NCBI GenBank assembly: GCA_965214605.1
Contig: OZ243961.1
Location: 2,688,001-2,752,000 of the forward strand
Direction: 5' to 3'
Origin: an uncultured Candidatus Binatia bacterium
GTDB taxonomy: Bacteria; Desulfobacterota; Binatia; Bin18
Length of the DNA: 64,000 bases
Below are positions 3,675 to 47,082 of this stretch, piece after piece (positions within the stretch are counted from its first letter, which is position 1; each line of letters begins with the position of its first letter). The notes beneath the pieces were generated by a model. It had not been told where the DNA came from. It ran no database searches and was given only the letters and a program-made list of their open reading frames with translations. The position numbers and the translations under genes are program-made.

Positions 3675-3718
3675 GTGGTCGATGATGATCACCGAGGCTA
3701 CATGAGATCATCGGTCCC
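3675..3718 (-). repeat. Degenerate copy of dispersed ~44-bp palindromic element, spanning the recX stop
   Basis: Minus strand GGGACCGATGA-N22-TCATCGACCAC; each arm 9/11 to GTGAACGATGA / TCATCGTTCAC. Confidence 0.45.
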
Positions 3719-4237
3719 CTTTTCGTCCTGGGGCGGACTGCCCAACAGCTGTTCGGCAAACTCGCACGAATATCCCCGCCGCACCAGCAGGCGATACGCC
3801 CGGGCATAGGTCTGCGCTTGTTGTAGCCCGTCCGCAGGAAAGCGGCTAGACAGCAGCCTGCGGGCGGCGTCGAGGTCGAGGCCTGGTTGTCGGGCTGCAA
3901 GCGTTTGCGCAATCAGGGCGGAATCAAGATGGTGGCGGAGGAGTTTTTGCCGGATGGCGGCCGGGCCAAAGCCACGTGCCTGAAAGTGCTGGGTGAGCTC
4001 CGCGGCCAGGCGGGCATCGTTGAGATAGCCCTGGCGGGTGAGGCGGTCGACCGTTTGTACCACCGCGCGTGGGCTGAAGTGGCAGGGAGGAGCTCGGCCG
4101 GTCTGTGAGAGGGTTTGTACCACCGCGCGTGGGCTGAAGCCTTTGGTACGCATCTTTGCCGCTAAGCCGGGCGCACTATAGGCTCGTTGTCCCAGCAGAC
4201 GATAGGCGTAGTCGAGAGCGGTCAGAGTGCCAGTCAT
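3698..4237 (-). CDS. recX: Regulatory protein RecX with a 20-aa in-frame duplication-insertion
   Basis: AYRLLGQRAYS, GYLNDARLA, GPAAIRQKL, LVRRGYS; upstream of alaS. FSPRAVVQT occurs twice. Confidence 0.9.
   Translation of the reverse strand: MTGTLTALDYAYRLLGQRAYSAPGLAAKMRTKGFSPRAVVQTLSQTGRAPPCHFSPRAVVQTVDRLTRQGYLNDARLAAELTQHFQARGFGPAAIRQKLLRHHLDSALIAQTLAARQPGLDLDAARRLLSSRFPADGLQQAQTYARAYRLLVRRGYSCEFAEQLLGSPPQDEKGTDDLM
4053..4139. repeat. Repeat-spacer-repeat unit: 27-bp identical direct repeats around a 33-bp unique insert
   Basis: GTTTGTACCACCGCGCGTGGGCTGAAG at 4053-4079 and 4113-4139; insert 4080-4112; period 60. Confidence 0.95.
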
Positions 4238-5416: not shown

Positions 5417-6580
5417 TCACACGACCTCATCCTCTCGTAGACTGCGGATATCGGCTGTGCTCAACCCCAGCTCGCCCAAAATCTCATCGGTCTGTTGACC
5501 TTTCTCTGGGGTGGGAGTCCTGACTCCACCAGGAGTGCGGCTGAGGGTGACGGGCAGGCCGAGGACATGAATTTCACCGAGGTGGGGATGGGAAACCGGG
5601 GTGGCCAAGCCCAGGTGTTGGACCTGTTCGTTGGCAAAGACTTGGTCAATCGACAAAATAGGGCCGCTTGGCACCCCCGCGTTGTTGAGCGCGGCAATCC
5701 ATTCGGCGGCGGTTTTGCGGGCAAGTCGGTGTTCTATTTCACGGCTTAACTCGTCACGGTTGCGCGAGCGTCTGCCCGGTGAGGCAAAACGCGGGTCGTC
5801 GTACAGCTCATCGGCTTCAAGCACGTGACACAAGCGTTTCCACATATGCTGGCCCCCCGAGGCGATATTGATATGGCCGTCTTTGACCCTGAAGCTTCCG
5901 GTCGGGATACTGGTCGGGTGGTTGTTACCGGCTTGGGGCGGAACTTCCTGACCGATCAGCCAACGTGTGGCCTGAAAGTCGAGCATGGAGACCATGGCTT
6001 CGAGCAGCGAGGTCTGGATCCACTGTCCTTCGCCCGAGCGTTCGCGTTCGAGCAGGGCGACTAAAATTCCTTGGGCAGCGAGCAGGCCAGCGCTCAGGTC
6101 TGCAACCGGGATGCCGACCCGCCACGGTCCGCTGCCCGGCTGCCCGGTGATGCTCATCAGGCCGCCCATGCCTTGGGCAATTTGGTCGTAGCCAGGCCGG
6201 TCTTTATACGGCCCTGTCTGGCCAAAGCCGGAGATGCTGGCGTAGACCAGGCGTGGGTTGAGGGGTTTAAGCGACTCATAGGAGATGCCGAGACGGTTTT
6301 TCACGTCGGGTCGATAGTTTTCGACCAGCACGTCTGCCCTACACACCAGCCTTTTGAGAATGTCTTTGCCGCGCTCGTCTTTGAGATTGAGGACCAGACT
6401 GCGCTTGTTGCGGTGGAGATTCTGAAAATCAAAATGGTGCCGGCTGGTGCCTTCCTCATCGTTAGGCTGCTCAACTTTGATAACCTGGGCACCCATATCG
6501 GCCAGCTGGCGGACACAGGTTGGGCCGGAGCGGGCGCGGGTGAGATCAATCACACTGATATGTTCAAGGGGGAGTGCCAT
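5417..6580 (-). CDS. CaiB/BaiF class III CoA-transferase
   Basis: LADMGAQVIKVE, RNKRSLVLNLK, ADVLVENYRP, ASISGFGQTGP, GYD. Confidence 0.95.
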   Translation of the reverse strand: MALPLEHISVIDLTRARSGPTCVRQLADMGAQVIKVEQPNDEEGTSRHHFDFQNLHRNKRSLVLNLKDERGKDILKRLVCRADVLVENYRPDVKNRLGISYESLKPLNPRLVYASISGFGQTGPYKDRPGYDQIAQGMGGLMSITGQPGSGPWRVGIPVADLSAGLLAAQGILVALLERERSGEGQWIQTSLLEAMVSMLDFQATRWLIGQEVPPQAGNNHPTSIPTGSFRVKDGHINIASGGQHMWKRLCHVLEADELYDDPRFASPGRRSRNRDELSREIEHRLARKTAAEWIAALNNAGVPSGPILSIDQVFANEQVQHLGLATPVSHPHLGEIHVLGLPVTLSRTPGGVRTPTPEKGQQTDEILGELGLSTADIRSLREDEVV

Positions 6581-6794
6581 GGCTGTGGTTCCTTTTTGCT
6601 GCCCTCATCCATACCGCATACTGAAGGGGCTTGTCTAATATTTTGAGATTACGCCAAAATCCAATTTCACGTTCCAGTCCTGAACCGACGCATCCCAGGG
6701 AAACCGCAGAAACCGGATCTCTCCGAGCCTTCCCCCGCTCTCTCTGAAAAGTTCGCCTCATGACATTTCGATAGGCTGACCGCACGTAGCCCGC

Positions 6795-6812
6795 CTCTCA
6801 GAGCTCTGAGAG
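6795..6812. promoter_or_regulatory. Perfect 18-bp palindrome in divergent intergenic region, possible operator
   Basis: CTCTCAGAGCTCTGAGAG is its own reverse complement; function is inference. Confidence 0.35.
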
Positions 6813-6846
6813 CTTGATCCTCGGGGTATCTGAGAAGGGAACTACA

Positions 6847-7191
6847 GGCTCTGTCCCACCCAAAAGAAAGTCAAGTAGATTGTATGCTCTTTTGGTTTAG
6901 GATGCGCCGCTGGCTGCCCCTCTTCTTCCCGGGCGCATGGAGAATCATCGTTTATATGAGCGCATGGCTAATCCACAAACAGCTTCTTCCTGGGCGCATG
7001 GAGAATCATCGCTTTGATGAAATTGTTTATTCCTCTGAGCTTACTCGTCAAGCCGGCTCCGCCAAAGCGAATGAGTCACGTCAAACCTTGAGGGGAGCCA
7101 GGCGGTCCATTTGCTGAGAAACCTCTGCCTCCGAAAGGGGATGGCCCCATCCATCTTAGCATGTTCTTTGACAACGAATTTGACAGCAGCC
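6847..7191. mobile_element. Possible non-autonomous IS/MITE remnant
   Basis: Imperfect inverted ends GGCTCTGTC (6847) and GACAGCAGCC (7182-7191); no transposase visible. Confidence 0.2.
6922..7011. repeat. Repeat-spacer-repeat unit: 29-bp direct repeats (1 mismatch) around a 32-bp unique insert, CRISPR-like geometry
   Basis: CTTCTTCCYGGGCGCATGGAGAATCATCG at 6922-6950 and 6983-7011; insert TTTATATGAGCGCATGGCTAATCCACAAACAG; period 61. Confidence 0.93.
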
Positions 7192-7290
7192 CCCTTAAGA
7201 ATATCCAGCCAGATCCGGTTTGGCTGGACAACACCAGTGCATATATGCCATGTAGGGCCACAGGCAGAGATCTCAGTAAGGAGGATAGCC

Positions 7291-8805
7291 ATGACACTCC
7301 GCAAGCCAACCAGAGATGATCTAGAGCGTTTGGCCGAGGCGCATTATTTTGAACTGAGTGACGAAGAGCTTGAGGCTTTCCAGAACATGCTGCCCGCCAT
7401 GTTTGCGTCTCTAGACGAGCTAGACCAGAAGCCGTCCAATCTGCCGCCGGTCGTTTACCGGGACCGCGCCCCTGGGGGGCGGCCAAACCGACAGGACGAC
7501 CCACTAAACGCCATTGTGCGGCGCTGTTCGGTCAAAGGGGCGTCGTCGGGCAAGCTGGCTGGGAAACGGCTGGGAATCAAAGACAATGTGTGCATTGCCG
7601 GGCTGCCCATGACCTGCGCTTCCCTCGTCCTAGACGGCTATGTGCCGGATATCGACGCGACGATCATCACCCGGATGCTTGACGCCGGAGGGGAGGTGAC
7701 GGCTATCCTCAATATGGACAACTTCGCGTTCTCCGGCGGCGGCCATACCAGCGCCTACGGACCTACCCGCAACCCACATAACCCTAAACACAGCGCCGGT
7801 GGGTCTTCAGGGGGCTCTGGGGCTGCCCTGTCATACGATGACATCGACATGACGATTGGCGGTGACCAGGGCGGCTCCATACGTATCCCGGCCTCGTGGT
7901 GCGGGGTGGTCGGTCATAAGCCGACCCACAGCCTGGTCCCCTACACCGGTATTGTCGGCATTGACCCGACCTTTGACCATGCGGGGCCGATGACTAACAC
8001 GGTGGCCGATGCTGCCCTGCTGCTAGAGGTCATTGCCGGCAAGGACCCGTTGGACCCACGCCAGTACGAGGTGCCGGTCCACCCCTACACCCAGGAGCTG
8101 GACAAAGATATCGGTGGGCTGCGCCTGGGCGTGGTTCGTGAGGGGTTCGGCATGCCGGGATCTCAGCGGGGGGTAGATGCCAAAGTCCGTGAAGCGGTCA
8201 GCGCGCTGGGTGAGTTGGGGGCGGAGGTGCAAGAGGTTTCTATTCCGGCTCACCTTGAGGCGGGTGGCATTACCTGGGCGCTCATTGCGGAAGGCATGGC
8301 GGCCTTGGCCTATGGCAACGGGGTCGGCCATCATTGGAAGGGGCTCTACAACGAGAGCTTTGTCAACACGTTCGGCAAGTCCCTCCAGGCCCAGGCCCAA
8401 GATCTGCCTATTCAGGTGAAGCTGGTGGTGGTACTTGGCTCATATTTGAACACGGCCTACCATGGACGTCTGTACGCCAAGGCCCAGAACCAGCGCCGGG
8501 CGCTACGGGCGGCCTATGACAGTGTGTTGGAGCGGTGTGATGTGTTGGTCATGCCTACCACGCCGATGGTTGCCCAGCGGCATGAGCCCGCGCAGTCCGT
8601 CCAGCAGAATCTAAATTTTGGCTGGACCATGTTGGCCAATACCGCGCCGTTTGACATGACCGGCCATCCGTCGCTGAGCCTACCGTGTGGCAAGTCGGAG
8701 GGGCTGCCGGTTGGCTTGATGCTGACCGGCCGCCATTTTGAGGACGGTACGCTGCTGCGGGTGGGACACGTGTTTGAGCAGCAGATGGCTTGGCAGGCGC
8801 GCTAG
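7291..8805 (+). CDS. Amidase signature family enzyme
   Basis: ATG 7291 after AAGGAGG; GIKDN Lys, SAGGSSGGSGA, GGDQGGSIRIPASWCG. Confidence 0.96.
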   Translation: MTLRKPTRDDLERLAEAHYFELSDEELEAFQNMLPAMFASLDELDQKPSNLPPVVYRDRAPGGRPNRQDDPLNAIVRRCSVKGASSGKLAGKRLGIKDNVCIAGLPMTCASLVLDGYVPDIDATIITRMLDAGGEVTAILNMDNFAFSGGGHTSAYGPTRNPHNPKHSAGGSSGGSGAALSYDDIDMTIGGDQGGSIRIPASWCGVVGHKPTHSLVPYTGIVGIDPTFDHAGPMTNTVADAALLLEVIAGKDPLDPRQYEVPVHPYTQELDKDIGGLRLGVVREGFGMPGSQRGVDAKVREAVSALGELGAEVQEVSIPAHLEAGGITWALIAEGMAALAYGNGVGHHWKGLYNESFVNTFGKSLQAQAQDLPIQVKLVVVLGSYLNTAYHGRLYAKAQNQRRALRAAYDSVLERCDVLVMPTTPMVAQRHEPAQSVQQNLNFGWTMLANTAPFDMTGHPSLSLPCGKSEGLPVGLMLTGRHFEDGTLLRVGHVFEQQMAWQAR

Positions 8806-18231: not shown

Positions 18232-18417
18232 TACGCTTCTTGACTTCGAGCCTCCAAGTGTCTCTGTCAATGTGGTGGTTTGGATGGTTGCGGTAGCGGA
18301 AAAACGATGGAGTGTCTCTGTTTAAGGTGGTGTGAATGGTTGCGGGTAGCGGAGGAACAACGGAGTATCTCTATTGATGTGGTGGCGTGGATGGTTGCGG
18401 TAGCGGAAAAACGACAG
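18183..18417. repeat. Degenerate tandem repeat, 53-54 bp unit (3 clear copies plus 1 decayed)
   Basis: Units start 18257, 18311, 18364 (AGTGTCTCTG...ATGGTTGCGGTAGCGGAAAAACGA); weaker copy from 18183. Confidence 0.85.
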
Positions 18418-18598
18418 AGATTAAGATAGGGGTGGGGAGGGGGAATTTTCCCCCTGTTCCTTGATTTCCCCCCACTCCTATCAAAAAATCTTCCTTCAGG
18501 CAAGGCCCTAGCCTAGGTGCGCCCGCTCAAGAGGAAAAACACCGGGAGAAGGCTGGAACAGACCCCAGGGCGCTTCCCTGACCTGCTGCTCTGTATCT

Positions 18599-46728: not shown

Positions 46729-47082
46729 CTACGTGGTGCGCCGTAACAGCTCGGCCAAGACTTGGCTCTGTCGTTCGAGCGCTTCGCCATGCCGTTCGAG
46801 CGCTTGGCTCTGTCGCTCGAGCGCTTCGCCATGCCGTTCGAGCGCTTGGCTCTGTCGCTCCAGCATCTGCCCCAACGCCTCGCCCTGTCGCTCGAACGCC
46901 TGCCCCTGCCGTTGGAACGCGGCGGCTAGCTCATCAATTTCTCGATCGCGCCGGCGGCCGGCCTTCTTCATCTGGAACAAGCCCCCAACAATGCATCCCA
47001 AGCCTATTATGCTGGCGATAGCCTGAATGATCTGGACCTGATCTGAGATCGACAATACGATGAATTGGTAGAGAGGATCCAT
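46729..47082 (-). CDS. Small membrane-anchored heptad-repeat coiled-coil protein
   Basis: TM IIQAIASIIGLGCIVGGLF, then LERQSQA / LERHGEA repeats. Confidence 0.75.
   Translation of the reverse strand: MDPLYQFIVLSISDQVQIIQAIASIIGLGCIVGGLFQMKKAGRRRDREIDELAAAFQRQGQAFERQGEALGQMLERQSQALERHGEALERQSQALERHGEALERQSQVLAELLRRTT
46761..46920. repeat. 21/42-bp coding tandem repeat
   Basis: CTTGGCTCTGTCGYTCGAGCGCTTCGCCATGCCGTTCGAGCG repeated about 2.5 times, plus degenerate 21-mers. Confidence 0.92.

Follow-up and report, generated by a model that had tools for sequence, protein, structure and literature searches.

The question raised by this locus is whether two short direct repeats, spaced exactly as in a type I-E CRISPR array, are a solitary one-spacer unit or a look-alike. 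They lie in a 64,000-nucleotide stretch of the chromosome of an uncultured Candidatus Binatia bacterium (hereafter, the window), and a previous reading of the letters alone (hereafter, the sequence-only reading) had proposed either a neo-CRISPR created by off-target integration or a regulatory mini-array producing one crRNA-like RNA, with an origin in replication or repair as the alternative. The two 29-nt copies (6922-6950 and 6983-7011, hereafter A and A') were, as described, identical at 28 of 29 positions with a start-to-start distance of 61 nt, the sole mismatch being at position 9 (C in A, T in A'). None of 100 shuffled windows reached two matches to the 29-mer, as against two in the actual window, and its 20-nt core was found with up to 3 mismatches at just two sites across the 4.37-Mb genome. 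The 32-nt insert was also correctly described as richer in AT than the window (GC 0.41 vs 0.59; 0.59 in the repeat and 0.52 in the surrounding positions 6581-7290) and as sharing GCGCATGG with the repeat; GCGCATGGnnAATC is present in three copies at this locus. A unit of 29 nt is only partly borne out, for both copies are real, but the similarity between them extends to 38 nt at 89%. At the left edge, identity before the unit is 1/10, and at the right edge it is 7/10 after a 28-nt unit, as against 1-4/10 in six other loci of the same 61-nt class. Elsewhere in the window, tandem repeats were seen at 18274-18419 and 46761-46920 (period 53, 2.7 copies; periods 42 and 21, 2.5-3.6 copies).

The repeat pair sits in a 710-nt gap between a CoA-transferase and an amidase gene. 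This gap is more than intergenic sequence; it contains the remnant of a Fic-family gene, matched by an intact open reading frame in a relative. The features to which the text refers are as follows.

5417-6580, minus strand: CoA-transferase family III gene, left neighbour (Pfam PF02515, E 1.1e-120)
6638-7146, minus strand: Fic/DOC-family pseudogene remnant, pieces in three frames, in-frame stops, about 178 codons deleted between 7093 and 7099
6922-6950, minus strand: copy A, native; of two neighbouring 9-codon segments in the Fic-like gene, it encodes the second
6951-6975, minus strand: first 25 nt of the supposed spacer (segment B), read as a diverged native 9-codon segment (family consensus (R/K)INRLVYRT)
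6976-7009: 34 nt extra in comparison with relatives, 7-nt filler CAAACAG (6976-6982) and 27 nt of copy A'
6983-7011: copy A', derived, abutting the conserved right flank C
7291-8805, plus strand: amidase gene, right neighbour (Pfam PF01425, E 2.2e-97)

In G020, a member of the same family but of another genus, the CoA-transferase and amidase genes flank an intact minus-strand ORF of 484 aa (P0001), which matches the Pfam Fic/DOC family (PF02661, E 1.2e-13) and possesses HPFGDGNGR, a motif that we take to be the catalytic one of the Fic family. Three pieces of the remnant match P0001 with E-values of 1.8e-13, 2.8e-5 and 3.1e-4, with TGA and TAA inside. A closer family member, P0100, gave 235 bits summed over the following minus-strand alignments.

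7146-7099: P0100 residues 61-76
7093-7004: P0100 residues 255-284
6951-6889: P0100 residues 291-311
6893-6687: P0100 residues 310-393
6730-6638: P0100 residues 366-396

Residues 77-254 of P0100, catalytic region included, have no counterpart between 7093 and 7099, and the repeat pair falls exactly in the gap between two of the matching pieces. The family, of approximately 397 aa, comprises 690 proteins at E <=1e-5, and its N-terminal and C-terminal parts are covered by the remnant. Homology with the Fic/DOC proteins (PF02661) is thus shared, but the part with the Fic motif has been lost and what is left no longer reads in frame. The locus is a Fic-family pseudogene and no longer a gene, with pseudogene sequence on both sides of the repeat pair.

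Orthologous loci were compared in eight relatives (six found first, two added), all in one other genus and with 64-71% DNA identity to the window. A DNA search of the family genomes detected a homologue of the remnant in 6 of 54 other genomes, all of one other genus, and in none of the seven same-genus genomes, so that the pre-event allele is unseen. All eight relatives have a single copy of A, followed by 25-27 nt (segment B) and then by the conserved right flank C, and the duplication is present in none of them; the order in the window is A, B, the 7-nt filler, A' and C. In the six relatives that were scored, copy A is identical at 14-17 of 29 positions and the right flank at 22-27 of 31. 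Joint alignment placed a gap at 6976-7009 in 8/8 relatives, which are shorter by 34 nt and not by 61; the edges of the insertion can slide by 1-2 nt owing to a shared CG. The base at position 9 of the 29-mer is T in all eight, as in A', and C in copy A alone, therefore one substitution came after the duplication.

The empty site that a neo-CRISPR should have in relatives was not what we saw: beyond the 34-nt difference in all eight, which belong to another genus, when the two flanks were mapped separately, 27 native bases separated the unit from the right flank in seven (for the eighth, G014, the best match of the flank mapping was a stray one, and this relative was not counted). The same test on three genuine integrase events of this genome, described below, resulted in clean overlaps of 28 (n1), 28 (n7) and 27 nt (recX). 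At the protein level, the stretch over these segments is exactly 36 residues long in 121 of 121 family proteins (the query and the best 120 of 690), and the 9 residues at the position of the 'spacer' are kept in all 121 of them, among the best conserved.

Four of eight sequencing runs were also compared with the window. Run X3 carries the stretch whole and identical; X3 may be the source sample, and this is therefore not an independent confirmation. Runs X1 and X2 had no contig over the repeat and X7 covered it in part, nothing being concluded from these gaps, and the rows of the four runs compared had no letters left out relative to the window. In one X3 contig, which belongs to another organism, 106 letters take the place of 141 in the window. 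With the 17-mer to the right of the repeat, which is short and AT-rich, none of the 119 matches listed among metagenome contigs was homologous to the remnant, and a scan of genome contigs with an alignment of the ten family proteins chosen for their closeness to the remnant gave, among the matches listed, protein identities of no more than 74% and no closer DNA.

Based on alignment, most of the supposed spacer is evidently native sequence. In a strict end-to-end alignment of its first 25 nt to the native codons, 15-25 of 4000 genomic 25-mers and 14-33 of 4000 shuffles scored as high under four gap settings (48 and 63, respectively, under a fifth), which corresponds to a p of about 0.005; over 27 nt (9 codons), the alignment contains one 1-nt deletion and one 1-nt insertion. 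This strict global test replaced a gapped test with free end gaps against the relatives, in which 1872 of 5000 were as high and the result was not significant. Identity of the 'spacer' to the relatives in register is 8-12/25, below that of the flanks, and the sum over six relatives (58/150) was reached by 1003 of 20000 random 25-mers, which is marginal.

The insert is related to the repeat as well. Its local alignment score of 10 with the repeat was reached by 144 of 20000 random 32-mers and, among real host spacers compared with their own repeat, by 1 of 95, and in the 27-nt (9-codon) register the two agree at 15/25 positions (8 of 50000 as high). The two junctions of the locus agree at 12/17 (chance 0.0014). 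The segment-to-segment score in the eight relatives is 4-5 (9 in one) vs 10 here, and the junction likeness 6-9/17 vs 12/17. Both the B-to-A and the junction likenesses are confined to the lineage of the window and hence not inherited, and the models are not told apart by the resemblance between spacer and repeat. No second copy of the insert was found in the genome, although five of the six other inserts of the 61-nt class have one, and the protospacer search that the sequence-only reading had suggested thus yielded no match elsewhere in the genome.

The attributes of a functional CRISPR repeat are for the most part missing. The imperfect TTCTTCC/GGAGAA hairpin attributed to the repeat did not withstand folding: both copies, on both strands, fold no better than 200 shuffles each (z +0.93, +1.08, -0.53 and +0.37), with minimum free energies of -2.6 to -6.0 kcal/mol, and the longest perfect inverted repeat is 4 bp. 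The anchor motifs GCGGG, CCCCG and CGGGG are absent from both copies on both strands. Comparison with the true CRISPR repeats of the host gave a divided answer. In register, 13 of 28 positions are identical to the I-E repeat (chance 0.032), with CCG at positions 8-10, but free local alignment to it scored 10, equal to the null mean and reached by 1886 of 3000 random 29-mers, and free alignment found none of the four host repeats to be significantly similar. The seven units of the 61-nt class, the flagged one included, show 12-17/28 in register (chance 0.079 for >=12 and 0.032 for >=13), and CCG at 8-10 is found in the I-E repeat and in four of the six genuine units. The window was rightly reported to have no evident cas genes: none of the eight genomic Cas1 matches falls in it, and the Cas1 gene beside the I-E array is about 386 kb away. 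The locus thus has the period of a functional type I-E array, but not its repeat sequence or anchors, its hairpin or its adjacent cas genes. As for a neo-CRISPR, the geometry of the host integrase is present and the length of the insert fits (32-33 nt), but there is neither an empty site nor a locally unrelated insert.

It should be noted that the genome does have the machinery in question. We found four large arrays and one small array, of the I-E type and three further repeat types, and eight Cas1 matches, some of them partial (C1:3262730 and 3643612). Arrays and Cas1 sites were listed at the following positions of G000, the genome to which the window belongs.

G000:C1:528853-529934
G000:C1:1687757-1689702
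G000:C1:2301763-2307641
G000:C1:2534814-2535100
G000:C1:3922753-3928347
Contig C2

The I-E array is adjoined by a Cas1 gene. It consists of 97 copies of a repeat of 28 nt, in which GCGGG ends 8 nt before the end of the repeat; 94 of its 96 intervals are 61 nt and 94 of its 95 spacers are 33 nt. The first base of the spacers is mixed (T 38, C 32, G 21 and A 3 of 94). A short-repeat family with a core of about 25 nt and spacings of 43-44 nt and their multiples was noticed at C1:612870-613480, beside a weak Cas1 match (C1:612052-612705), and at C1:176444-176512.

The chromosome was scanned for direct repeats present in just two, non-abutting copies outside the five arrays (unit of >=24 nt, >=23/24 matching, offsets 30-130). 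Seven pairs were found at offset 61 and seven at 73; most other offsets gave 0-3, and 63, 77 and 102 gave 5-6, the pairs at 63 and 102 being mostly repeat families. Besides the flagged pair there are six at offset 61, which cannot be put down to chance; each is a duplication of 27-28 nt around 33 nt, and four of them consist of exactly 28-nt perfect units. The inserts of five of these six are copied from the same chromosome (32/32, 33/33, 32/32, 33/33 and 32/33 identical). Positions below are those of the first unit.

n1, G000:C1 91695: no genomic source for the insert
n2, G000:C1 125255: insert copies C1:2307693-2307724, in the I-E leader region
n3, G000:C1 500128: insert copies C1:974074-974106
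n4, G000:C1 1399850: insert copies C1:1691840-1691871
n6, G000:C1 3921609: insert copies C1:1215783-1215815
n7, G000:C1 4089123: insert copies C1:915880-915912

For n1 and n7, clean empty sites are present in G006 and G007, with a flank overlap of exactly 28 nt; the flanks of n3 and n4 are unconserved in the seven same-genus genomes and gave no empty sites there. We also observed that n1 splits an ORF which stays unbroken at this site in the DNA of G006 and G007. No consistent PAM was seen in the bases upstream of the five self-protospacers (TGA, TGA, GTC, ATC and CGC). The protospacers of n3 (C1:974074) and n6 (C1:1215783), when oriented by the repeat, are both preceded by CCTTGA; the other three differ.

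Pairs at other offsets fit the other arrays of the genome (36+30=66; 37+35 to 41, that is, 72 to 78), and in six of them a single self-derived source for the insert was found. The I-E module may not be the only one that integrates off target. The pairs at these other offsets were recorded at G000:C1 1967743, 2103853 and 3068860 (offset 73), 4250363 (66), 1706198 and 782974 (65), with more at 70-78. Their measured units are 28-40 nt, those of 37-40 nt being suited to the arrays with 36-nt and 37-nt repeats (periods 66 and 72-78), and single copies of their inserts elsewhere are identical at 36/36, 29/29, 33/33 and 28/28 positions, with weaker ones besides.

A further event of this kind lies 2.8 kb from the flagged unit.

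4053-4139 of the window (G000:C1:2692053-2692139), in a recX-like ORF at 3698-4237, minus strand: 27-nt duplication around 33 nt

This insertion adds 20 codons in frame and leaves the ORF open. It is missing from six sister species, each of which has one copy of the duplicated sequence, with a flank overlap of 27 nt. At the same recX site, G007 has a 27-nt duplication of its own, and the 33-nt insert that it surrounds is a different one, which contains TAA. No second copy of the G007 insert was found in the G007 genome, and no source in the genome for the insert of the window's genome. Copies of the I-E repeat number 99 in G000 and 224 in G007, both of which have a recX insertion, and 91 in G005 and 3 in G001, which lack it; G002, G003, G004 and G006 have neither an I-E repeat copy within 2 mismatches nor a recX insertion. 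The recX site looks like one pseudo-repeat hit independently by I-E off-target integration in two species. That at least seven solitary units form a set of off-target I-E integrations comes close to being demonstrated, and from the genuine units at offset 61, the recX event and the self-derived inserts at other offsets, it follows that natural off-target integration is frequent in this lineage. The sequence-only reading was therefore sound in kind, given a host array of 28+33 nt and genuine one-spacer units elsewhere, but is not supported for the locus at which it was proposed.

For the flagged pair, we consider it probable, and with some confidence, that it arose when a templated duplication of nearby sequence added 34 nt (7-nt filler and a 27-29-nt copy) within a dead gene, and that it has no function. 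An origin in replication or repair, which had been named only as an alternative, is the reading best supported by the data: relatives differ by 34 nt, and the insert is both native-like and repeat-like. The gene context, the single copy in relatives and their 34-nt difference, the mostly native 'spacer' and the missing hairpin, anchors and protospacer are all matters of observation; for the mechanism by template switching and for the lack of function, including any crRNA or regulatory role, we infer rather than observe.

The ancestral order would have been left flank, segment A, segment B (9 codons) and right flank C, and 34 nt would then have been inserted between B and C, namely the 7-nt filler and a copy of A from 61 nt upstream. 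Template switching during replication or repair synthesis is the likely mechanism. On the minus (coding) strand, synthesis may have proceeded to the end of C and then skipped forward by 27 nt to the point where the A-encoded segment starts, which is preceded by similar bases; the A-encoded segment would have been copied, 7 bases added, and synthesis resumed at the start of segment B. The right end of the copy lands where the A/B and B/C junctions look alike, and the new strand could have re-annealed there. This junction likeness amounts to no more than microhomology of the sort at which template switches tend to occur. The net effect would be a gain of 34 bases and a frame shift of one, in a gene with a lost catalytic core, other frameshifts and stops.

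Complex indels include templated insertions made by template switching, in which a short copy of nearby sequence is accompanied by filler bases. The flagged locus resembles these in having a nearby copy, few filler bases, a junction likeness of 12/17 and a host gene with frameshifts, stops and a large deletion; it differs in that its filler has no identified template and its copy lies 61 nt from its source. Native sequence separates source and copy, therefore this is not a tandem duplication. Some points weigh on the other side. No template was found for the filler CAAACAG, which counts against local duplication. Moreover, by a rough estimate, local duplications that have this offset and this unit length by chance would be expected about 0.03 times per genome; they are so rare that the integrase reading would be favoured if prior odds were all that counted.

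Another explanation, which we hold to be unlikely, is an aged off-target integration by the host I-E Cas1-Cas2, with a 28-nt target duplication around a 33-nt spacer. The period of 61 and the unit of 28-29 nt match the I-E geometry of a host that has Cas1 beside its array (28+33), seven genuine events are present in the genome, the recX one being close by, and there is the in-register identity to the I-E repeat, with CCG at 8-10. The inserts of n1 and recX likewise have no genomic source. Removing 61 nt would restore the frame as well, the difference between 61 and 34 being 27. Such an event, however, needs the loss of exactly 27 native bases flush with the edge of the unit, either before or after it, and none of the three testable genuine events shows one. 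It further needs a chance likeness of the spacer to the codons it replaced (about 0.005), to the repeat (0.007) and at the right flank (7/10). Fisher's combination of the three tests gives 2e-4 to 7e-6, the weaker in-register value of 0.05 being used for the codons. The 9 residues to be replaced are, besides, those kept in 121/121 family proteins (query and best 120 of 690). We see only a slim chance that the flagged unit is an eighth, older neo-CRISPR whose 28-mer was chosen for its in-register CCG, with 27 native bases lost and the resemblance between spacer and native sequence due to chance or later patching. The neo-CRISPR reading of this locus does not agree with a difference of 34 rather than 61 nt, native bases at the would-be empty site, a related insert, and a unit with no hairpin, anchor or protospacer.

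A hybrid of the two appears rather improbable: a nick or half-integration by the I-E integrase at a pseudo-repeat, repaired by template switching, with no foreign spacer acquired. This would account for a native 'spacer' together with an integrase-like geometry and an in-register CCG. Fill-in of a staggered nick, however, would give abutting copies, and not copies with native sequence between them, and we know of no described reaction that sets a target copy beyond 25 native bases. A functional element, whether a mini-array with one crRNA-like RNA or operators for the divergent CoA-transferase and amidase genes, is highly improbable, for despite three GCGCATGGnnAATC copies within 80 nt and one promoter-like site (7051-7022, minus strand), there is no hairpin, no Rfam match at E <1 in 5500-8500 (three at E 2.7, 6 and 8.3 are far below the gathering scores), and the DNA is decaying coding sequence whose gene is intact in relatives, none of the eight having the duplication. 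The weights that we assign to these four readings rest on rough rather than computed likelihoods.

Off-target integration as such has been described. According to citing papers, Nivala et al. (2018) are reported to have detected off-target integration by over-produced Cas1-Cas2 in E. coli, which can spawn new arrays (neo-CRISPR); circumstantial evidence is reported for two other species, and off-target acquisition appears in the consulted literature as one of three proposed origins of isolated arrays. The flagged locus is similar to a neo-CRISPR in having repeat-length copies around a spacer-length insert, away from cas genes, in a genome with a 28+33 array and genuine events. It differs in being 34 nt longer than its relatives, in its native-related insert and blurred right boundary, and in having no protospacer. 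The E. coli I-E repeat, according to Goren et al. (2016; PMC5039180), has two ruler anchors, the second being GCGGG ending 8 nt from the end. By that account the flagged unit is similar in its period of 61 and in having CCG at 8-10, at the first anchor of the host repeat, and different in having no GCGGG, CCCCG or CGGGG, whereas the host repeat has the E. coli arrangement. In the literature consulted, natural off-target integration figures only as a proposal or with circumstantial evidence, and no priority is claimed here. Self-derived one-spacer units or a recX hotspot were not found described in it; it did not extend to Nivala et al. (2018) and Shmakov et al. (2020) themselves, which may list overlapping cases.

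The flagged locus is most likely a known kind of event, an ordinary small duplication with CRISPR-like spacing, and the one-spacer units found across the genome are new and unusually clear examples of a known phenomenon. A repeat pair of 29+32 nt can pass for a one-spacer array even when the genome does contain real ones, and what told them apart here was the empty-site test in relatives together with where the insert came from. Should the set of one-spacer units hold up, it would be a natural record of target choice by the integrase, of self-spacer uptake without autoimmunity, and of the birth of arrays.
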